Source of the DNA: a virus
Taxonomy: Duplodnaviria > Heunggongvirae > Uroviricota > Caudoviricetes
Virus record (IMG/VR): IMGVR_UViG_2718217884_000005
Span: 1-25,610 of that record
Length of the DNA: 25,610 nucleotides
Direction: 5' to 3' (one strand)
The translations under genes and the position numbers were made by a program. This document shows, piece by piece, positions 1 to 11,660 of the stretch (positions are counted from its first letter, which is position 1; each line of letters begins with the position of its first letter). A model generated the notes under the pieces. That model made no database searches and was not told the DNA's origin. It saw only the letters and a list, made by a program, of their open reading frames with translations.

Positions 1-443
1 TGAAATGTAAAACACTACCTCTGCTGGCGATGGTTGCCACCACTCTGTTTCTGAGCGCCTGCGATGACAGGAGTGATGACCTGAAAGCTATCAGTAAATT
101 TAAGGACCTCACGCCTCCGCGCTTCAGCGATGTGGTCAGTCGGCAGGATGATGTCAGCGAAGAATGGTCACAGGTTGGCTTTTCATCAGGTCTCACCCTG
201 CAGGTCTTACGTACCCGTGAGTCGCCCGATGGCTGCGAGGGCGGTAGTTACTACTACCTCGTGGATATGCAGGAAAAAACCATCCAGCCGCTGATGAATG
301 CGCTGTGTATTGCCGATAACATCAAACTGGAATACCAGGAGGTGACGGACCCGTATACCAAAGAAAAATACTTTGAGTACGCCCATGACGGCAAACTGAT
401 GGGGCAGCTACTGATACCCTCGAACCCTGACAATCAGGAATAA
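1..443 (+). CDS. CP4-type prophage lipoprotein (YfjS/YafY-like); start codon probably cut by the window edge
   Basis: ORF 30..443; in-frame upstream codons give KCKTLPLLA before MVATTLFLSAC, a signal peptide with lipobox LSAC; the ATG would sit at positions 0-2. Confidence 0.55.
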   Translation, partial: KCKTLPLLAMVATTLFLSACDDRSDDLKAISKFKDLTPPRFSDVVSRQDDVSEEWSQVGFSSGLTLQVLRTRESPDGCEGGSYYYLVDMQEKTIQPLMNALCIADNIKLEYQEVTDPYTKEKYFEYAHDGKLMGQLLIPSNPDNQE

Positions 444-465
444 AACAACGACAAAGGAGACAAGA

Positions 466-933
466 ATGACAATACTTTCACTAAGTCGGTTTATGCTGGC
501 GGGTGTACTGCTCGCGAGCTTTAATGCCTCTGCTATCCCGGGGTTCTGGCAGCAGGGTTACGGTCAGGGCAATACGGAATACAGCGTGACCGAAGCCAGC
601 GGAAAGACGTTTACCATCAACTGCACAGGGAACCCGGACCAGAATGGTTTCTATCAGCATTCAGTCTTTCTTACCCTTGCCGATGACAAGATGGTCAGTT
701 CGCACGATGACGACACTACTATCACCGTAGTGATGGATCACCAGCAGTACATTATTCCGTCCAGCCTGGGCTGGCGTAACGGCGATAACGCCTGGTTTGA
801 CTTCATCAGCAATATCTCTGAGGCCGGGCAGTTCGACGTCTACGTCAATGACCACAAAGCAGGGACCTTCACTGCGGACCGGAAGAACACTGAGAAAGTT
901 CTGTCCACTCTCGGAGACTGCAGCAACGACTGA
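466..933 (+). CDS. secreted hypothetical protein of CP4-type island (YfjT/YkfB-like)
   Basis: 155-aa ORF with N-terminal hydrophobic signal-like segment; GGAG-type RBS upstream; synteny with CP4 island genes. Confidence 0.5.
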
Positions 934-1009
934 TAGTAGTATCTTCCCCAGCAAATCCACCCCGACAGCTAGCAGGCTGCCGGGGTTTTCTTTTATCAGG
1001 AGCCCGAAA

Positions 1010-1249
1010 ATGACCCAATCCGTGTTGCTGCCACCGGGGCCTTTCACCCGGAGACAAGCGCAAGCGGTCACTACCACGTACAGCAATATCACACTCGAAG
1101 ACGACCAGGGCAGTCACTTCCGTCTGGTGGTTCGTGATACTGAAGGCCGGATGGTCTGGCGGGCATGGAACTTTGAGCCGGATGCCGGTGAAGGTCTTAA
1201 CCGCTATATCCGCACCTCAGGCATCCGTACAGACACGGCCACCCGCTGA
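1010..1249 (+). CDS. small conserved CP4-type prophage protein (79 aa)
   Basis: ATG at 1010 with AGGAG about 8 nt upstream; lies immediately upstream of the antirestriction gene as in CP4 islands. Confidence 0.4.
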
Positions 1250-1346
1250 TCGCGAAGCATTTACCCGCATTCACCTCCCCGAACACACTTTATATCCCCA
1301 TACGCCAGCCATCGCCGCTGGCGTTTTTATTGACGGAGACATACCC

Positions 1347-1805
1347 ATGACAACACAGACGCAGCACGACCTCGCACCCGCTAACCAACCCGAATTTGAA
1401 CTGACCGTCACGCCGGTCCCCGATGAACAGCGTATCGATTTCTGGCCACAGTACTTTGGCGCTATCCCGCAGTGGCTACTCCTGGAGCCGCATATCTTCG
1501 CCTGGATGGACCGCTTCTGTGAGGGCTACAGCGGTGGTATCTGGTCGTTCTACACCCTCAGCAATGGCGGCGCATTTATGTCCCCCGAGCCTGACAACGA
1601 TGAGACATGGCGTCTGTTTAACTGCCTGAACGGTAACGATGCCCAAATGAGTGCAGAAGCAGCAGGTATTGCTGTCTGCCTGATTGCGTATAGCCACCAT
1701 GCCTGCCGTACAGAATGTGACGCGATGACCGCACACTATTACCGCCTGCGGGAGTATGCCATGCAACATCCAGAGGCTCACGCCATTCTGCGTATTATCG
1801 ACTGA
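1347..1805 (+). CDS. yafX: antirestriction protein (ArdB/KlcA family, YafX/YfjX-like)
   Basis: 152-aa translation from the internal ATG at 1347 matches recalled CP4 antirestriction proteins; symbol is a guess based on the thrW-adjacent location. Confidence 0.75.
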   Translation: MTTQTQHDLAPANQPEFELTVTPVPDEQRIDFWPQYFGAIPQWLLLEPHIFAWMDRFCEGYSGGIWSFYTLSNGGAFMSPEPDNDETWRLFNCLNGNDAQMSAEAAGIAVCLIAYSHHACRTECDAMTAHYYRLREYAMQHPEAHAILRIID

Positions 1806-1820
1806 CCGAAGGAGCAACAG

Positions 1821-2297
1821 ATGAAACAGCTTTCCTTTTTACCCGGCGAGATGACGCCACAGGACCGGCGTCTCATTCAGCGGGCGCTCAGGGCTCTGGA
1901 CCGCCACCTGCATGAGCCCGGCGTAGCCTTCACCTCTACCCACGCCGTACGTGAATGGCTGCGACTGCATATGGCCGCGCTTGAGCGGGAAGAGTTCCGG
2001 GTGTTGTATCTGGACAACCAGAATCAGTTGATTGCCCATGAAACGCTCTTCACCGGCACGATTAACCGCACCGAGGTGCATCCCCGGGAGGTGGTCAAAC
2101 GTGCTCTGCACTTCAACGCGGCGGCGGTGATACTCGCGCATAACCATCCTTCCGGCGAGACGACACCTAGCCAGGCCGACAAAACCCTCACGCAGCGACT
2201 GGTTCAGGTGCTTCAGCTGGTGGATATCCGTGTCCCTGACCATCTGATTGTCGGTGGCAGGCAAATCTATTCGTTCGCAGAACACGGTCTGCTTTGA
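1821..2297 (+). CDS. ykfG: RadC-like JAB/MPN domain protein
   Basis: 158 aa with the HNHPSG JAB metalloprotease-like motif; RBS GGAG upstream; conserved CP4 island position. Confidence 0.8.
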   Translation: MKQLSFLPGEMTPQDRRLIQRALRALDRHLHEPGVAFTSTHAVREWLRLHMAALEREEFRVLYLDNQNQLIAHETLFTGTINRTEVHPREVVKRALHFNAAAVILAHNHPSGETTPSQADKTLTQRLVQVLQLVDIRVPDHLIVGGRQIYSFAEHGLL

Positions 2298-2305
2298 GGT
2301 ATTAC

Positions 2306-2527
2306 ATGAAAATTATCAGTAAACGCAGGGCAATGACGATATACCGCCAGCATCCTGAGTCCCGAATCTTTCGCTACTGCACCGGCAAATACCAGTGGCA
2401 CGGTAGCGTCTGTCATTACACCGGCAGGGACGTTCCGGATATCGCCGGAGTCCTCGCGGTATACGCCGAACGCCGCCAGGACCGCAATGGGCCCTATACC
2501 TGCCTGATGAGCATCACCCTGAACTGA
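2306..2527 (+). CDS. DUF987-family small protein (YkfH/YeeT/YpjJ-like)
   Basis: 73-aa ORF from ATG 2306 between the RadC-like gene and the antitoxin, as in CP4 TA loci. Confidence 0.55.
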   Translation: MKIISKRRAMTIYRQHPESRIFRYCTGKYQWHGSVCHYTGRDVPDIAGVLAVYAERRQDRNGPYTCLMSITLN

Positions 2528-2545
2528 CAATAGTGGAGAACTGTA

Positions 2546-3225
<680 letters not shown>

Positions 3226-3290
3226 ACATTGCGTACAACCTTCCCGATTTACATTTCTGAACTTCCTCCCTTGTTTACCTATTGCGTAAT

Positions 3291-3327
3291 GCGCCTGCTA
3301 CTACCCGGCAGGCGCGTTATCTTTTTA
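3291..3327 (+). terminator. rho-independent terminator after the toxin gene
   Basis: 8-bp stem gcgcctgc / gcaggcgc around a 9-nt loop, followed by a T-rich run (gttatcttttta). Confidence 0.6.
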
Positions 3328-3604
3328 CGGACAAACAATCATGCAACCAGAAGTTGAAGTATTAACCGATCATAATGAGCTAATTTGTTCGAGCTTTATT
3401 GAACACATTGCCAACACATTAAATTTAGGAGTGGTGTACAACTAAACCTGCAGCCAAGGATGTATAGTGAGCGAAGCCCTATCAGGCCTTTTTGGTCAGT
3501 AGATAAGATTGATCTTCGTTGATAGAATTTACTTACACCAGCTGTTACATTAAGATAATTTTTTGGTGGGAGAATGATAAGATCTTACGTAACAATTTGA
3601 TTTT

Positions 3605-3652
3605 AATGGTGCCGATAATAGGAGTCGAACCTACGACCTTCGCATTACGAAT
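3605..3652. repeat. prophage attachment-site repeat: 48-bp copy of the thrW 3' end
   Basis: aatggtgccgataataggagtcgaacctacgaccttcgcattacgaat is identical to 24165..24212 inside thrW; identity ends at 3653. Confidence 0.85.
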
Positions 3653-3879
3653 CATAAGAATCCGCTTCTAATTCAAAGTATTACCCCATCAACACTGCGC
3701 TCACACGTCCCACCACATCAAAACATGTAAAGCCTTGCAAGCCATTGTGAGGCCTTATGTGTCTCAGTTTTGTCCCACTACGACCTGCACAGAAAATAAG
3801 AAAATAGCGGTGATATCAAACAGTACAGAAGTCTTTTTTCTTTCAAATGGAGAAACTGATTAACCCGTTTAATTGTACT

Positions 3880-4135
3880 CCTCATGGGTAATCAGCAGTC
3901 CTCAGAGTAATGGAATGGCAGAAAGGTTCGTGAAAACGATGAAGGAAGACTACATCGCGTTCATGCCGAAACCGAATGTAAGAACGGCATTGCATAATCT
4001 TGCAGTGGCGATCGAACATTACAATGAAAACCATCCGCACAGTGCGTTGGGTTATCGCTCTCCGCGAGAATATCGACGTCAGCGGGTAACGTTAACTTAA
4101 GATACACCCCCTGTCTGGAAATAAGGGGGCAAGAA
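3880..4135 (+). pseudogene. IS3-family (IS2-like) transposase C-terminal remnant with right-end sequence
   Basis: translation [20 protein letters not shown]...[14 protein letters not shown] is the conserved C-terminus of IS2/IS3 OrfB; 4108-4130 resembles the IS2 terminal sequence; no N-terminal part present. Confidence 0.6.
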
Positions 4136-4141
4136 CAATGA

Positions 4142-4894
4142 TCAGATTCCCTGGTGAGTAAGAATTTTACTTTCTGAACTCCTCTGAGAGTATTGACTTG
4201 GAGAAACACCAAAATAACGTCTAAATACATAAGTAAAGTATGAGATACTGGCATAACCACAGACCTTAGCTACTTTACTAATAGGATAACAACGAGTGCT
4301 GAGTAAATATTCAGCCATTTGCATCCTCTCATCAAGTATGATCTTACTGAATGATACCCCCTCTTCTTTCAATTTCCTCTTTAGTAAACTTTCGCTGAGA
4401 TATAATCTTGATGATATATCCTTAAGACGCCATGGTGCAGATAAATCCGTATGAATAATCGTTTTAACTTTAGCCCCTGTGCTTTTCAAACATCCAAACA
4501 GAAATACTCCAAATTGTTTTTCAGAAGAAAATGCAGAGAGACATGTAAAAGCAATAGACTCATCAAAAATTTCTATGTATTCAGCACAGTGATTAGCCCA
4601 ACTAATTAATCCTTTAATTAAACTGAAGTCAGCAAAGTTTATTTTTAAATAAGATGGATATTCCCTACAATCAGAAATATCCCTTAAGTTATTAGCTTTC
4701 AAATAGCGACTAATAAACTCAGCGCCAAAATCCGCCACTATCACTCTTTCAGGATATGTCAGGAAAAAATCTCTAGAGCTAGAGTCGACAAGTACAGATG
4801 AACCTCTCTCCAGAAACACACTCTCTTTTCCGAAATAAACATCAAAGGACTCCAAAATCAATATAACTGAACATGTAGTTGCCATATCATCCAC
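4142..4894 (-). CDS. AraC-family transcriptional regulator
   Basis: 250 aa with a C-terminal AraC-type double HTH (KVAKVCGYASISYFTYVFRRYFGVSPSQY); visibly AT-rich. Confidence 0.8.
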   Translation of the reverse strand: MDDMATTCSVILILESFDVYFGKESVFLERGSSVLVDSSSRDFFLTYPERVIVADFGAEFISRYLKANNLRDISDCREYPSYLKINFADFSLIKGLISWANHCAEYIEIFDESIAFTCLSAFSSEKQFGVFLFGCLKSTGAKVKTIIHTDLSAPWRLKDISSRLYLSESLLKRKLKEEGVSFSKIILDERMQMAEYLLSTRCYPISKVAKVCGYASISYFTYVFRRYFGVSPSQYSQRSSESKILTHQGI

Positions 4895-5138
4895 CCAATT
4901 TAACTGAAACCAGGATGAAGTATATGCATATAAAGTTCACTTTGCCAAACTTCAGTATAAAAAACCACATAAAAAATAGGGTGTGATAAAAAACACCGTA
5001 AAAATAAAGCAAAGGATTATAAATTCCGTTACAGTTACAAATGATACTTAAGAAACAATTCCTTAGAAAACCTTATTTACAGCCAATAAGTAAGACACTT
5101 ATATGATATCAAGTTTTCATAAAACATAACTAGGCTAA

Positions 5139-6333
<1,195 letters not shown>

Positions 6334-6536
6334 CATAGCCAATAAGCATGTTAAATCCCCCTGGTAAAAGCAGGAATGATGCCATTTGCTTGTTATTTCT
6401 TCATTTTCATAAACGTTCATTTAATATTGTAATTTTTCAAACACTCCCTATAAATGCACTATCTGTACAATTCAACAAATTAACCTTATACTACTCACAT
6501 TATTTTTGTACACATTAAAACCAGCAAATACAACAT

Positions 6537-7601
6537 ATGAACTCGAATAGGTTAACCAGTCGATTGCAACATTTAGATGGGCTTAGAGGACTTGCTATAC
6601 TTCTTGTTATCTCTTTCCATGTTTTTTCTCGCTGGCCTGAATATTTAAACTTCGTCCATTACACAGGAAATATCATCCCATTTAAATATGGCATGCATGG
6701 CGTGCAGTTATTTTTCATGATATCAGGGTATGTTATCTTTTTGTCGATGGATAATTGCAAAAATATGATAAATTTCTTACTAAAAAGATGGACGAGATTA
6801 TTTCCGGCAATGCTATCATGTACAGCATTCATCTTTCTTTACTCTGTGTTTATTCATAACAGACCTGCCGGAACACCAAATTTGACAGATGCCATACCTG
6901 GCATCACTTTTATTCACCCGCAACTATTAAACTCAATATTCCATACTACCATCAACTCATTAGAGGGTGCCTTCTGGACATTATACGTTGAAGTTTTCTT
7001 TTACATTTTCGCTGGATTCATTTTCTTTCTGATGGGAAGAAAGATTTTTATGATTATGCTCTTTATGATGTTGCCTTTATACATCACTGGAGAGTTAGTT
7101 GCCCCTGGTGCTTTTGAACTACTATTCACATGTACTGGCTTACATAGTTTTGGATGGTTTTACATTGGTTGTTGCGTTTATGAGATTAAGAACAACAATA
7201 AAAACCCGGTTATCATAGCATCTCTCTTTATAACATTAACCCTCAACCTTCTTTCAGGGTATATTTTATTCAAAGATAATTATGGAATTGGGAATATCAT
7301 ATCCCTGTTAACTTTATTCATTATATTCATAGGTTCATTTTATATTCCAGCGTTCACTACCACCATGAAAAACAAATATCTACTTTTTTTTGGATTTATA
7401 AGTTATCCCCTTTACTTAATTCATGAGAATTTGATAGTAGCATTATCCAACAGTCTAATATCAAGTTTTAATCTGTCAGGTTATTTTTCCATAACCTCAT
7501 TAATCCCATCCATTTGCATAGCCATTCTTTTTTCTTACTTTATTGCAAAAAAAATAGAGCCTTATGTCATAAGAAAACTTAGAAACAGCTATGCAGGTTA
7601 A
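6537..7601 (+). CDS. acyltransferase-3 family membrane protein (O-antigen or other surface glycan O-acetyltransferase-like)
   Basis: 354 aa, about 10 hydrophobic segments; N-terminal LDGLRGLAILLVISFHV carries the AT3 R-x10-H signature; strongly AT-rich. Confidence 0.8.
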   Translation: MNSNRLTSRLQHLDGLRGLAILLVISFHVFSRWPEYLNFVHYTGNIIPFKYGMHGVQLFFMISGYVIFLSMDNCKNMINFLLKRWTRLFPAMLSCTAFIFLYSVFIHNRPAGTPNLTDAIPGITFIHPQLLNSIFHTTINSLEGAFWTLYVEVFFYIFAGFIFFLMGRKIFMIMLFMMLPLYITGELVAPGAFELLFTCTGLHSFGWFYIGCCVYEIKNNNKNPVIIASLFITLTLNLLSGYILFKDNYGIGNIISLLTLFIIFIGSFYIPAFTTTMKNKYLLFFGFISYPLYLIHENLIVALSNSLISSFNLSGYFSITSLIPSICIAILFSYFIAKKIEPYVIRKLRNSYAG

Positions 7602-7632: not shown

Positions 7633-7998
7633 TTATAGATTTGGCTCTGGAGGCCAGTTAATCTCAGGGTAGGTTGTTACATCAACAGCCTTAACCTGAT
7701 TCTTATATAAAAGCCACGCCGAAAGTTTAGCTCTGTTGGCATCGCTGATTTCACCCAGCATCAGCTCTGTGCGCCAGTCGAGCATAATTGCATCAGCGGC
7801 GGACAGTAATCGCTGTCGCTCATTTTCAGCAGCCTGGATGAGTTGTTCATGAGTCGGTGGGGGATTAATAATTGCCATAGCCTCACTTCTGGTGATTGGC
7901 ACAAGCCCTTCTTTGATAAAAGCATCCTGTGTGCCATATGCATCGTAGGCATATACGACGTTATTTTCATCTTTGTAATACTTCATCATTGTTATCAT
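7633..7998 (-). CDS. tfa: tail fibre assembly chaperone (Tfa)
   Basis: 121 aa resembling lambdoid Tfa proteins; ATGA overlap with the stop of the upstream tail-fibre frame. Confidence 0.7.
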   Translation of the reverse strand: MITMMKYYKDENNVVYAYDAYGTQDAFIKEGLVPITRSEAMAIINPPPTHEQLIQAAENERQRLLSAADAIMLDWRTELMLGEISDANRAKLSAWLLYKNQVKAVDVTTYPEINWPPEPNL

Positions 7999-8654
7999 TT
8001 TTTATCCACCTCTACCCAGGTAACATCTGACACTGTTCCTGAAAACTGCTGCACAATATAGGTCGCACCGGCAGGAACCATGAATGCGATAGTTGCTCTT
8101 TGCCCTGCAAGATTTGTTGTCTGAGAGCCGCGAAAATTAGCCGAATTACCATCCACATTAACGTTGGCGCTCAGAAATGAACTACCGTCAGACAGCACCG
8201 CATTGACGCTTACAAATATGGCGAAAGACTGGCTGTTGGTGTATACGACACCGAGATTTCTAGATTTCATTCCGCATTGACCAAACAACCCTTTCATATC
8301 TGAATAGTTTTGTGATGCAGCAAGTGATGATGCAGCAACACCAGATTCTGTTGATGTTCTGGAATCAGATACGCGGATAATTCCCTTGTTTGTAGTGGTT
8401 GCATCATTAGTCTTGCCTTGCAGAGCTACAATATCCGCATAATTCATCGCTGCCGCTTTTGCTGTTGCAGCAAGCGTTTCAGATTCGGATACCCTTGATG
8501 ATGTAAGTTGAACAATTCCTTTCTGTGTCGTAGTTGAATCCTGAGTTTTGTTTTGCAAAGATTTTATGTCCGTATAGTTTTGCGCGACAGCATTAGCTGT
8601 GGCTGCAATATCCTCTGCACCCGATATCGGAGTAATCAGTAAATAGCTCTCCGC
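7995..8654 (-). pseudogene. side tail fibre protein, C-terminal fragment only
   Basis: open frame with tail-fibre-type repeats (NYxDIxxLQxKT, TTTxKG); no plausible N-terminus; frame closes at a stop at 8655-8657 next to the endolysin remnant. Confidence 0.65.
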
Positions 8655-8766
8655 CTACAATGACGTCATAACCATGATTTCTGGTTTTCTGCCGTCCGTT
8701 ATCCGTTCCTTCTGACCATGCCACCATATCGAGGAAAGCCTTACGCTGAGGATTAAGATTTTGCAT
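8626..8766 (-). pseudogene. lambda R-type endolysin, N-terminal 47 codons only
   Basis: translation MQNLNPQRKAFLDMVAWSEGTDNGRQKTRNHGYDVIVGGELFTDYSD matches the recalled lambda R N-terminus, then diverges and stops; start overlaps the holin 3' end. Confidence 0.7.
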
Positions 8767-9070
8767 TTTTCACCCCTGTCAGTCGTTCCCAGAAGTACGT
8801 CAGTGCAACCGAACCCATCGCACCACTAATCCCCGCTGTCGCGAGAATCATGTAAATACTGAATCCACTTTCGATGCTGATCAGACCACCAATAACACCG
8901 GTGAATCCTGATACCACTATCTGAGCCAGAGCATTTATCCAACTCCACGTTGCTTTACTCTGCTTCACATCTATCAGGTAGCGGACCAGACCGCCCCAAC
9001 CTGCGATGATCAGCAAAACGAGCCAGAACGCTCCGGCAAGGCTCTCTTTTTCGTGCATATGAATAGCCAA
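8753..9070 (-). CDS. phage holin (three predicted TM segments, dual-start motif)
   Basis: 105 aa, MAIHMHEK dual Met start, three hydrophobic helices, charged C-terminus; sits between the Q-position gene and the endolysin remnant. Confidence 0.65.
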   Translation of the reverse strand: MAIHMHEKESLAGAFWLVLLIIAGWGGLVRYLIDVKQSKATWSWINALAQIVVSGFTGVIGGLISIESGFSIYMILATAGISGAMGSVALTYFWERLTGVKNAKS

Positions 9071-9283
9071 TGTTTCGCCGCCGACAAAAGGCCGGGACGT
9101 TAAATGTCAGAAATCAGGCTCACGGGGTAATTTAACGACAAAGCACGGAGTTGATGCTCCCCGCAAGCCTGGAATAAAAAAGCCAGCATGTAGCTGGCAA
9201 CAGAGGGTTAAGCAATATCAACTCAACAGCTGAAGACACCCTGGCTGGGGTAGGTTGGAAGGCTACTCACCGTCCAGAAACAG

Positions 9284-9312
9284 AAAAGCCCAAAGTTTTA
9301 AACCTCGGGCTT
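9284..9312 (-). terminator. candidate tR'-like intrinsic terminator in the late promoter region
   Basis: minus strand reads AAGCCC...GGGCTT hairpin followed by TTCTGTTTCT, in the Q–holin intergenic region. Confidence 0.35.
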
Positions 9313-9379
9313 GAATTTGGATTACTGCCAGTGCGTACAACATTGGCAAAATATCAGATTTACCCGAAATATATGCTTT

Positions 9380-10069
9380 TTAATCCAGTTTTGCAATACT
9401 TTGCTGTGAAAATGTCGTCTTTTGTTTTGAACGTGTTTTCGTTAAAAGCAATAAAGCTTGGCTATCAAGCTGTAGAAAAATGTGCTTCATTGCAACCCAG
9501 CGTTCAGTAAATGTCTCAGACCAGTTTTTTGATGTCACTCCCACCAGTGATGCCAGCTCCTGGTATTCATAGGTCTTACGCCCTGCCAGCTCGTTCTTCA
9601 CATCCTGTGCCGCCAGCCAGATCAACTTCTTTAAGCGTTCCAGTGTCTTACCTGCAATTTTCCTGGTACCCAACAGAGTCTTAAACTCGCTCCATACCCA
9701 CTGCGTTATGGTGACCTGATGTTCCCAGCGAACAATTTCGCTGTAACTCCACAGCAACCACGCTTTCTGGTGTTCTTCGAGAGACAGAACCGCGCGGCGC
9801 CATGAAGATGTTGAGAACTCAACCTGGCTGACCAGTGCAATGGATGAACCTTTTGCGTACGACTGCTTACCGGAAATCGGCGGATTATCCAGCGTAATCA
9901 TCTTGCCCGTTACCTCATCCAGAATGCGCGGCTTCTTTCGTTTATATGTACCAGTATCAAATTGTGCATGCTCCAGCCAGGCTTCAAGCTGGCCTTTCGT
10001 TGCTCCGCTCAAATCAGCAGTAGCCACAATGAGTTGCTCGCGGACATACTGTAAATATTGGGTATTCAT
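9380..10069 (-). CDS. putative late-gene antiterminator (Q-position protein)
   Basis: 229-aa ORF between ylcG/rusA and the holin, with a ~310 bp intergenic region before the holin; call is by synteny, no family signature recognised. Confidence 0.45.
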   Translation of the reverse strand: MNTQYLQYVREQLIVATADLSGATKGQLEAWLEHAQFDTGTYKRKKPRILDEVTGKMITLDNPPISGKQSYAKGSSIALVSQVEFSTSSWRRAVLSLEEHQKAWLLWSYSEIVRWEHQVTITQWVWSEFKTLLGTRKIAGKTLERLKKLIWLAAQDVKNELAGRKTYEYQELASLVGVTSKNWSETFTERWVAMKHIFLQLDSQALLLLTKTRSKQKTTFSQQSIAKLD

Positions 10070-10206
10070 GCGGCAGCTCCTTTCAGTGTTTTGGCGTAAT
10101 TCTTCAGTATCCGGTAATCGGTCAAAACAGAACCGGGGAAACGATATAAGCGCAGGCGCATCCAGCGGTGGCGAAGACGTTCTGCCATATAAGACTCAAA
10201 CATCAT
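10066..10206 (-). CDS. ylcG: YlcG-like small protein (46 aa)
   Basis: minus-strand [53 protein letters not shown]-type overlaps with rusA and the Q-position gene; missed by the ORF track size cutoff. Confidence 0.55.
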
Positions 10207-10565
10207 TCATTCCCCAGTTCAGTGATGGTCAGCTCCAGCTTCCCACCTTTGGTAACGGGCATCTTCACAACACGGTAATCAACGACCTGAATATCATCCA
10301 GCCAGAAACCTGCTTTGGTGAGTGCGTCAAAAGCGGCTTTTTGCAGATTATCCAGGTCACGGCGACGGCGATCCGGCATGTGGCACTCAATACGGATTTT
10401 CACAGGCATAGCCAGGCCGATATCCAGCATTGCGTTTTTAATGATTCGGGCGACGTTATCGCGGTATGCCTGCCCCTCTGCGCTGACGTGCGTGCGCCCG
10501 CGATTATGGCGGTAATAGCGATTATTGCTCGGAGGCCAGGGTAATGTGATGCTGTAGGTATTCAC
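10203..10565 (-). CDS. rusA: Holliday junction resolvase RusA
   Basis: 120-aa translation almost identical to recalled E. coli RusA. Confidence 0.95.
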
Positions 10566-10852
10566 GCCTTAATAACCCCCTCTTTCAGCCAGATAACCTG
10601 TGTTCTCGCCATACCTTCCAGCGCGCATTCTTTTGCATACTCAGCATCGACAAAATGCGTGCGACGGTCGATCTCATCGTGACAGGCAGAACATGCAATG
10701 GTGGCAATCAGGTCTGGCGGTTTGGTACCGGTGCCACACAATTCAGCCAGCCGGATATGTGCCAGTACAGACGTTTCAGGGTTGCCATTACATACGCCAG
10801 GGATTCTTACCTGGCATTCCCGACCACGCGCTGCTTTTCTCAAATCAGCCAT
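10562..10852 (-). CDS. ybcO: YbcO-like DUF1364 protein (putative nuclease)
   Basis: 96 aa from [23 protein letters not shown] with Cys-rich motifs; RBS AGGAGG upstream; DLP12 nin-region synteny. Confidence 0.75.
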
Positions 10853-11015
10853 GATTCCTCCTTGCTGCCAGTCGCAACCATTTTTTATCAACCAGGCTGG
10901 CGGTATACCCTAGCAGTGTTGGTATTTCGGATGGCTTCAGCTCAGGCTTACGCTTACGACGATTTGGTACTCTGTAGATGTGTCCGTTCATGACCCGAAT
11001 AAGCGGTGTAGCCAT
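10845..11015 (-). CDS. ninE: NinE-like small protein (56 aa)
   Basis: [30 protein letters not shown]... between ybcN and ybcO with overlapping start/stop codons; missed by the ORF track. Confidence 0.5.
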   Translation of the reverse strand: MATPLIRVMNGHIYRVPNRRKRKPELKPSEIPTLLGYTASLVDKKWLRLAARRNHG

Positions 11016-11470
11016 TACGCCTCCTGCTTGTCGCGCAGCAGCTGGAACTCGCAGCTCTGCGGAATAGTCAGGTGGCAGCCAATATTCATCGCCCAGGCTT
11101 CAACCTTACACAGGAAGACATACATCTCTCCGGTATCGAGATCGGAGGTATGACGTAATGACTGAATGGTGGTGATTTCACCGGTTACGACATCAACCAG
11201 TTCTTTGGTTTCATAACCGAGATAAGTGTGTTTGAGAGCATCTTTTACCCAAGCTGGAGTGGCGAACGTTTTACCCCTGCTGATGAGGTATTCACTGATT
11301 TCGCTGTACCACATGTGGCTGAGTGCATTCTGGGAAAGACTGCGTCTTTCGCGCCACGGTTTAAGCACCATGCGAAAGCATTTGCCGTCCTCCAGATAAG
11401 GCTGGATCTGCTGACCGATAGCGGTGAAGTTACCGCGATGCAATTTGATACCGTCTTGTGGGAGGTTCAC
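11015..11470 (-). CDS. ybcN: YbcN-like protein (DLP12 nin region)
   Basis: 151-aa translation matches recalled YbcN; conserved position upstream of ninE. Confidence 0.8.
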
Positions 11471-11660
11471 GCTTCACCTCCGCAGAGGTCAAACGTTGGA
11501 TGCAAAAAAACGCAGGTGCATTTCTGCATCTGTGAATGGAGAAGAGAGTTTGGATTGTATGTGCGCATAAACGTCCCCGTTTAGCGCAGAAGTCACCGGA
11601 GTTGTTCAAGCTCCGATGACTTTATTATTACGAATTGATTTTACAAAATCAAAAGGTATG

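Follow-up and report, generated by a model that had tools for sequence, protein, structure and literature searches.

The truncated late operon of the thrW prophage

The window analysed here is a 25,610-nucleotide stretch of DNA (positions 1 to 25,610 of the IMG/VR virus record IMGVR_UViG_2718217884_000005) that covers the proA-thrW region and carries a lambda-like prophage between two copies of a 64-nt direct repeat (3589-3652 and 24149-24212, 93.8% identical). On the minus strand of this element the antiterminator gene Q is followed by a holin gene, the beginning of the endolysin gene R (R'), the end of a tail-fibre gene stf (stf') and the fibre assembly gene tfa. We consider it very probable, taking the parts of this reading jointly, that the region represents the scar of deletion within a defective prophage's late operon, likely reached in more than one step, with a fibre-side end that is not random.

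The holin gene (8753-9058, minus strand) is intact and encodes 101 aa from an ATG at 9058, within an open reading frame (ORF) whose longest form starts at a TTG at 9070. This ORF (8753-9070) specifies a LydA-type holin (Pfam PF16083, E 8e-22; PHROG holin, E 5e-40) that is 100% identical over 101 aa to the holin of Escherichia coli AR_452 (NZ_CP030331.1), which carries a near-intact related prophage at the same integration site. R' (8593-8766, minus strand) overlaps the holin end and comprises R codons 1-47 (8766-8626) and ten out-of-frame codons of stf DNA (IGCRGYCSHS) before a stop at 8593-8595, giving a 57-aa product. Residues 2-47 match residues 2-47 of phage lambda lysozyme (PDB 1AM7/3D3D, E 2e-24), the alignment stopping exactly at 47, and all 47 are identical to the start of the intact 158-aa AR_452 endolysin. 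By homology R' belongs to the lambda R-type endolysins (lytic transglycosylases, GH104; PDB 1AM7); of a complete catalytic domain of about 158 residues it retains 47, including the region of the catalytic Glu19, with 10 unrelated residues attached. R' is a gene fragment and, judged from its sequence, a non-functional member of this family. A preliminary description of the window had placed a holin followed by R residues 1-47 at 8626-8766, and both its coordinates and its assignment were correct.

Downstream of R', stf' (7995-8625, minus strand) consists of the last 209 codons of a fibre gene (residues 118-326 of 326; 8624-7998) and its stop, in a frame that is open from 8654, so that 64% of stf is kept. 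The fragment matches Pfam Phage_fiber_2 (PF03406, E 1e-11) and several PHROG tail-fibre families, and is 100% identical over 209 aa to the C-termini, with the fibre repeats and receptor-binding part, of intact 326-aa fibres. In other genomes the 326-codon stf adjoins an identical tfa and lies beside Baseplate_J and gp48 genes. What has gone is the N-terminal baseplate-attachment (constant) part, residues 1-117, together with the start codon and the invertase crossover site (..GAAAACC TT GGTATTAAAGAC..), which in intact stf sits 60 nt upstream of the junction point. The first possible start codon in stf' is a TTG at 8558, where an obvious ribosome-binding site was not seen. The ATG of tfa (7633-7998, minus strand) overlaps the stf stop codon, and the gene is intact (121 aa; PF02413, E 7e-21; PHROG tail fiber assembly, E 2e-28). 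The abrupt switch to another frame with tail-fibre repeats, followed by tfa, had also been noted previously, and is confirmed by these Pfam and PHROG matches and by the megablast comparison described below.

The deletion junction

The two gene fragments meet at 8625-8626, where the sequence in gene orientation reads ...TACTCCGA(T)↓ATCGGGTGCAG... (here and below the arrow marks the join), with 1 nt of microhomology in the form of a single shared T. When searched by megablast against 5,426 complete Escherichia coli genomes the window splits at 8626, with fibre and tfa matches ending and holin and endolysin matches starting there. The join, which the preliminary description had proposed to map by alignment, falls at R codon 47 and, on the fibre side, within stf codon 117.

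That description had also named an assembly artefact as a finding that would undermine it. An assembly or chimeric-read origin would account for the absence of the exact junction 40-mer from genome_contigs and metagenome_contigs (0 matches), of the junction from the 5,426 complete E. coli genomes, and of any record of the exact 57-aa R' product; the exact 40-mer across the related EcPF16 junction likewise gives 0 matches in genome_contigs and metagenome_contigs. However, looking up a 187-aa ORF inside stf' retrieved a Logan contig from an independent sequencing run (ERR11779480_193330; L017) with the same junction, nucleotide for nucleotide, behind another holin and R background. The single nucleotide shared at the join is far shorter than any assembler k-mer, and related scars are present in the complete genomes EcPF16 and KFu022. 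An artefact is therefore extremely improbable and, given the independent occurrence in L017 and the 1-nt overlap, is ruled out for practical purposes.

The upstream side of L017 is a true lambda S holin and a lambda R allele (MVEINNQ...), and every difference from the window falls within the first 75 nt of R'. This pattern shows that the upstream flank of the scar was later replaced through homologous recombination or, with lower probability, that the identical join arose on two occasions. The junction also creates a perfect 10-bp palindrome, CCGATATCGG (8621-8630), with an EcoRV site that its parents lack, which is probably a coincidence.

Loss of the late genes

None of the 34 late and morphogenesis proteins of AR_452 is encoded in the window when searched by tblastn, the matches being confined to R residues 1-47, the holin and, weakly, tfa; the AR_452 terminase, portal, head, sheath, tube, tape-measure, baseplate and Rz1 proteins have no match there. 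Since these 34 proteins are without a match, the Rz, packaging, head and tail genes are truly absent from the window. In AR_452 the interval between R and stf holds Rz1, terS, terL, portal, head, sheath, tube, tape measure and baseplate genes in ~21.9 kb and, by this measure, ~22 kb are missing from the window, which, as expected of a defective lambdoid prophage, lacks the genes for making particles. The claims that a deletion fused the lysis cassette to the distal tail-fibre gene inside a prophage bounded by attachment (att) sites, and that Rz, terminase, capsid and tail genes are absent between the att repeats, are thus borne out (R residue 47 to stf residue 118), and no intact packaging or structural genes lie elsewhere between the att sites. 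The wording that all morphogenesis genes had been lost goes slightly too far, as nearly all are gone while tfa is intact and 64% of stf is left.

In the arrangement that we propose, the late operon would now read Q, late promoter and terminators, holin, R(1-47)↓stf(118-326), tfa. The join would have been made by illegitimate rather than homologous recombination, as it has just 1 nt of microhomology. Because R' stops out of frame and stf' has lost its attachment domain and start codon, we infer that no endolysin, spanin, capsid, tail or usable fibre can be made. The holin would still be expressed from Q-dependent late transcription. Since the repressor, integrase, att sites and Red-type genes look intact, the element may have kept immunity, excision and recombination. 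The element is thus predicted neither to lyse its cell normally nor to make particles, and may yet excise, repress and recombine. The term domesticated prophage in the preliminary description goes beyond what was seen, namely intact ORFs, and a benefit to the host is at most conjectural.

One deletion or several

Three relatives share the left arm of the window, tagged by the same IS5 in the invertase gene pin: EcPF16 (NZ_CP054224.1), L009 (SRR11943576 contig 349) and KFu022. EcPF16 and L009 have the same left arm (IS5 in pin, acyltransferase, tfa and stf C-terminus) as well as the holin and the start of R at 99.7-100% identity. In EcPF16, R runs to codon ~100 and is fused directly to stf codon ~70 through GCGCTT microhomology; a segment of 312 bp across this join is missing from the window. 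Compared with the window, L009 shows a difference of 1 nt over 2.3 kb of left arm (99.96% identical) and none over the available 248 nt of right arm, but has an intact R, followed by an Rz'::tape-measure' fusion, a 176-aa ORF and a truncated DNA-circulation/hub gene that is joined to stf at the very nucleotide used in the window. In KFu022 the full TerL gene is joined 16 nt before tfa, with the same left arm.

As such close relatives (EcPF16 and L009, arms at least 99.7% identical to the window) carry intermediate scars, the window most likely acquired its scar in stages and not at a single stroke, and the last deletion in the window could have been of 312 bp, 2.7 kb or about 22 kb. The preliminary description had instead invoked a single deletion, in which an intact prophage lost about 20-22 kb and R codon 47 was brought straight to stf codon 117. 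The final sequence fits one event, intact versions of both sides are known (AR_452 for R; L033 and L042 for the series gp48, stf, tfa, acyltransferase and IS5) and a hot spot at the fibre site would allow each junction to form directly from an intact gene. Against this, the closest relatives of both arms, EcPF16 and L009, hold smaller scars that the deletion in the window would span, and with L009 only 1 nt away in 2.3 kb, two independent large deletions are less parsimonious than one additional deletion of 2.7 kb or 312 bp. Given these intermediates a single step from an intact phage appears to be the least parsimonious option and we judge it unlikely; the claim is unsupported, successive deletions being at least as likely. 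A simple nesting, in which the window is a 312-bp deletion derivative of the EcPF16 scar, is itself weakened by L009, which is closer on the left arm and has a different intermediate.

EcPF16 also shares the segment from Q through the holin to R' (window 8626-10116, L001 19440-20929), but its early region is unrelated (window 10116-23050) and its integrase, at the same thrW site, is 77% identical to that of the window, indicating that whole arms have been exchanged between thrW prophages. Further in-frame fusions were seen in two relatives, an Rz-like spanin N-terminus joined to tape-measure sequence in L009 (568-1746) and an N-terminus of no known identity joined to a tape-measure C-terminus in L008 (451-1482); decay in these relatives has left several scars per element.

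A recurrent breakpoint in the fibre gene

The fibre-side end of the deletion is not peculiar to the window, a point that the preliminary description had missed. In gene orientation, the sequence 5' of TATCGGGTGCAGAGG varies with context and the break always falls at one nucleotide. The native fibre reads ...CATCGCGGG↓TATCGG at this point (unit 0), and the sequence to the left is replaced by R codon 47 in the window and L017 (...CTCCGA↓TATCGG), by a baseplate-hub fragment in L008, L010-L014 and L016 (...ACATAGT↓TATCGG), by the DNA-circulation/hub fragment in L009 (...AACGACGT↓TATCGG), by a Mu gp46-like gene in L024 (...GGGGGGA↓TATCGG) and by a DUF2612 gene in L015 (...AACAGGGG↓TATCGG). At the homologous point of the next fibre repeat (unit 1; native ...CATCAAGGG↓TATCCG) the partners are a head-decoration gene (KFu022, L004) and a P2-type GPO scaffold gene (Z1323HEC0011, L031). 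Beyond R there are at least four partners at unit 0 (G↓TATCGG) and two at unit 1 (G↓TATCCG), with GGGTGCAGAGGATATTGCAGCCACAGC and CCGAATCTGAAACGCTTGCTGCAACAGC as the respective right-hand 30-nt flanks, and the cases come from lambdoid, Mu-like-tail and P2-like prophages. Where the native partner is known the shared sequence amounts to 1-7 nt (T, TA, TATCGG, GGGTATC). The partner is always an upstream late gene in the same orientation, so each junction represents a deletion extending upstream from a fixed point, with sizes from 0.55 to about 22 kb. The variable part of the fibre measures ~690 nt, and of the eight partner combinations ending within it seven use these two positions; other end points are found in EcPF16 and in the KFu022 thrW prophage. 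When the fibre fragment was used as a protein query, the matches were intact fibres, flipped-segment ORFs and the head-decoration fusion, which shed no more light on out-of-frame junctions, and a scan with a unit-1 anchor gave no new loci.

On the sequences compared, the fibre-side end is non-random and the site is a preferred end point for deletions that run upstream. Our best guess at a mechanism is that a DNA end or nick would be made at G↓TATC, with subsequent joining via microhomology of 1-7 nt. It is possible, though we advance it tentatively, that some activity makes such an end or nick at the site G↓TATC(G/C)G, present once per Phage_fiber_2 repeat unit, and that deletions run upstream from it repeatedly and with nucleotide precision. 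A 250-bp out-of-frame deletion of stf in L037 (about 2187-2207, compared with L033 1937-2187) lies between 21-nt fibre-unit repeats; this is an ordinary repeat-mediated event, unlike the fixed-point junctions.

Selection offers a different explanation of the fixed end point. The arrangement itself might be functional, with a holin lacking its endolysin, or stf' with tfa, kept for controlled cell death and release or as a donor cassette for incoming phages, and the end point and shared +1 frame would then reflect selection. Different strains have the holin, tfa and fibre C-terminus intact and in nearly identical form, phages are documented in PMC3945230 to acquire fibre genes from defective prophages, and four of four out-of-frame partners end in one frame (...IGCRGYCSHS and stop), 34 nt before the TTG of the 187-aa ORF. 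Selection cannot, however, set a breakpoint to one nucleotide, and in stf' no start codon is accompanied by a ribosome-binding site. Partners in other frames are seen as well (DUF2612' and GPO', with the head-decoration fusion in frame), and because these three partners differ from the four that share a reading frame, frame selection is unconvincing. A functional role of this kind is very unlikely.

Candidate causes were sought in the enzymes and structures at hand. The fixed end point could derive from the neighbouring Pin-family serine invertase acting at a secondary site, or from exchange of sites cleaved by gyrase or another type II topoisomerase. In every context tfa has an invertase gene downstream of it, the nucleotide-precise end with 0-7 nt shared is as expected of enzyme-made ends, and every product is compatible with a top-strand join at ↓TATC. 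The gyrase consensus in the supplement to PMC6379681, GGTAT↓NNNN↓ATACC, has GGTAT beside the cut, and both fixed sites contain GGTAT. Yet the genuine invertase crossover sites (..AAACC TT GG..) lie 60 nt upstream in native fibres and beside the invertase genes, and the breakpoint CATCGCGGG↓TATCGGGTGC is unlike the 26-bp ..AAACC NN GGTTT.. dyad, so that a secondary invertase site is rejected on sequence. A comparison with the consensus string of that supplement would put the gyrase cut at GGTAT↓CGGG, 2-3 nt to the right of the observed boundary, and the consensus arms are not matched by the sequence on either side of G↓TATC. Nor were reciprocal products, with the left side of the site kept, seen among the nine viral contigs with an upstream anchor, a small sample. 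An origin from either enzyme is therefore doubtful. Hairpins or cruciforms were also rejected, as folding z-scores of -1.8, -1.8 and 0.0 give no structure that places the break.

To our knowledge, restriction sites, insertion sequence ends, Chi, integron, Xer and relaxase sites do not fit the breakpoint either.

Several points weigh against a stepwise scar with a fixed end. The arms have been shuffled between lineages (L014, L017) by homologous exchange within stf'/tfa and R'/holin, and because of this swapping the order of events is unprovable and a one-step origin is possible. Three of the five unit-0 partners were found through the 187-aa ORF look-up, which restricts junctions to ~100 nt, not to one nucleotide; the remaining partners came from unbiased DNA searches. 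None of the enzymes or structures compared (invertase sites, hairpins, gyrase consensus) explains the fixed point.

Boundaries and retained genes of the prophage

The element has the boundaries of a cryptic prophage, with att repeats at a tRNA gene and a neighbouring integrase. The proximal att repeat (24149-24212) overlaps the tRNA-Thr(CGU) gene thrW (24167-24242, minus strand; together 24149-24242), as identified by ARAGORN, the Rfam tRNA model and the direct repeat; an Rfam scan of the whole window found tRNA only. The distal repeat (3589-3652) is a partial copy of the 3' part of the tRNA-Thr gene and also occurs in EcPF16. It forms the boundary with a CP4-6-like island (1-3588) that carries a YfjS/YafY lipoprotein gene, ykfB, antirestriction and JAB/ykfG genes and the yafW-ykfI toxin-antitoxin pair; at the point equivalent to ~1016-1020 EcPF16 has an IS150 that the window lacks.

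Between the repeats the gene order is int, xis-like, exo, bet, gam, kil, cargo, cI-type repressor, cro-like, O, P, nin region and Q, then holin, R', stf', tfa, acyltransferase, IS5 in pin and an AraC regulator. The early genes are all full length relative to AR_452, and the lambda order is evident from full-length matches to exo, bet, gam, kil, a cI-type S24 repressor, O, P, ninE, rusA, Q and holin. The retention of regulation, recombination and cargo suggested earlier therefore holds, with full-length int, xis-like, exo/bet/gam, cI-type repressor, O/P, nin, Q and cargo genes. The tyrosine integrase gene (22989-24152, plus strand) is full length, adjoins thrW and matches the PHROG integrase family, its product being 99.5% identical over 372 aa to that of AR_452. 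Antiterminator Q (9380-10069, minus strand) is also full length (PHROG Q-like, E 4e-108; 97.8% identical to AR_452 Q). Between Q and the holin lies a putative late-operon leader (9182-9396, minus strand), with a promoter-like sequence at 9396-9368 and terminator-like hairpins at 9312-9286 and 9198-9182, called by a consensus scan alone and assigned a function by its likeness to the lambda pR'/tR' arrangement.

Beyond tfa, a cargo gene for an acyltransferase_3 (O-acetyltransferase-like) protein (6537-7601, plus strand; PF01757, E 3e-19; PHROG O-acetyltransferase, E 2e-44) occupies the usual place of the alternative fibre and tfa genes of an invertible segment. This position is a cargo slot, since other contexts have a GDSL lipase gene or nothing there. 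The boundary between the acyltransferase and pin sides falls exactly at the crossover point, reading ..AAATGAAC↓GT.. in the window (6405-7601) and ..AAATGAAC↓CT.. with a different invertase in L034/L040 (3962-4160). A remnant of pinE (MLIGY) with the pin-proximal half of the crossover site (6334-6417, minus strand) is 100% identical over its 84 nt to the 5' end of K-12 e14 pinE and the P-segment boundary, and the identity to e14 stops at AAACGTT. After codon 5 of pin lies a complete, 1195-bp IS5 (5139-6333, minus strand; 16-nt terminal inverted repeats at 5139-5154 and 6318-6333; transposase ORF 5273-6184). Compared with AR_452 the window is without pin and a GIY-YIG nuclease gene, and the flanks of IS5 match AR_452 positions about 1.9 kb apart. 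Elsewhere, proteins P0001, P0016, P0060 and P0070 represent 243-aa and 197-aa ORFs with unrelated starts that enter the fibre variable part at GIKDAS or GIKEAS; these are as expected of the flipped (off) orientation, so that this fibre segment probably still inverts in other genomes.

The distal cargo is an AraC-family regulator gene (4142-4894, minus strand; Pfam HTH_AraC/HTH_18, annotation transferred from EcPF16), with an IS3-family integrase-core fragment just before it (about 3891-4100). Positions 3601-5138 and the distal end of the AR_452 thrW prophage are 99.1% identical. On the opposite strand, a Lom/OMP beta-barrel gene (ORF 13504-14253, plus strand, within 13368-14659) lies between pieces resembling AR_452 ren and appears to be a moron inserted between P and the nin region. 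Directly past the cI-type repressor, in the rexAB position, the window (18125-19310) encodes a DUF7946/DUF7947 protein and a 110-aa ORF, where AR_452 has a HipA kinase and DUF3037 and other thrW prophages are annotated with TIR/DUF6414 or DUF4041. The slot looks variable and defence-like, the sole PADLOC match being weak (PDC-S42, E 1.5e-4).

Comparison with known prophages and significance

AR_452 shows what a near-intact counterpart looks like. It shares the site, the early region (int 99.5%, Bet 99.6%, Q 97.8%, holin 100%, R 1-47 100%) and the distal AraC/IS3-fragment end (99.1%), but possesses a complete R as well as the Rz1, terminase, head, contractile tail and baseplate genes (~22 kb) and, in place of stf', tfa, acyltransferase and IS5, an e14-type invertible fibre segment with pinE. 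The site thrW is described as a known integration hot spot, and PMC6379469 is a review of 'grounded' prophages. That phages engage in exchange with defective prophages is likewise documented (PMC3945230).

The K-12 elements DLP12, Rac, Qin, e14 and CPS-53 are likewise integrated beside a tRNA or other host gene and retain int together with regulatory and some lysis genes, with stf, tfa or pin remnants at one end. Their internal deletions also fuse unrelated fragments, as in CPS-53, where yfdM (a methyltransferase fragment) abuts yfdL (a fibre fragment); this junction was rejected as an instance of the same breakpoint, as it lies at a different point in a different fibre allele. The window differs from these prophages in its integration site and gene content, its complete early region and the position of its scar, where R codon 47 meets stf codon 117. 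Known hot spots for illegitimate recombination in E. coli include short-homology-dependent deletions and gyrase-mediated exchange, as in the formation of lambda bio transducing phages. Like them, the junctions described here join unrelated genes through 1-7 nt and reuse one site; they differ in an end fixed to the nucleotide, at least seven partner combinations, several phage backbones and two homologous repeat units, and no known consensus that was tested fits.

The scar is ordinary cryptic-prophage decay, the usual fate of a prophage, and as a scar alone it matters little, being one more step in a well-known process. The allelic series at one locus (intact, TerL::tfa, R100::stf70, DNA-circulation'::stf' and R47::stf') shows this decay proceeding via successive deletions and arm swapping, not in one event. 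The recurrent breakpoint is the sole part that might surprise a specialist. If it is what we suggest, lambdoid, Mu-like-tail and P2-like prophages would undergo a sequence-directed loss of their lysis and morphogenesis genes in which the fibre tip, tfa and downstream cargo are always kept, and a defined break-making activity would provide a mechanistic handle on how prophages are disarmed with their receptor-binding modules preserved for reuse.

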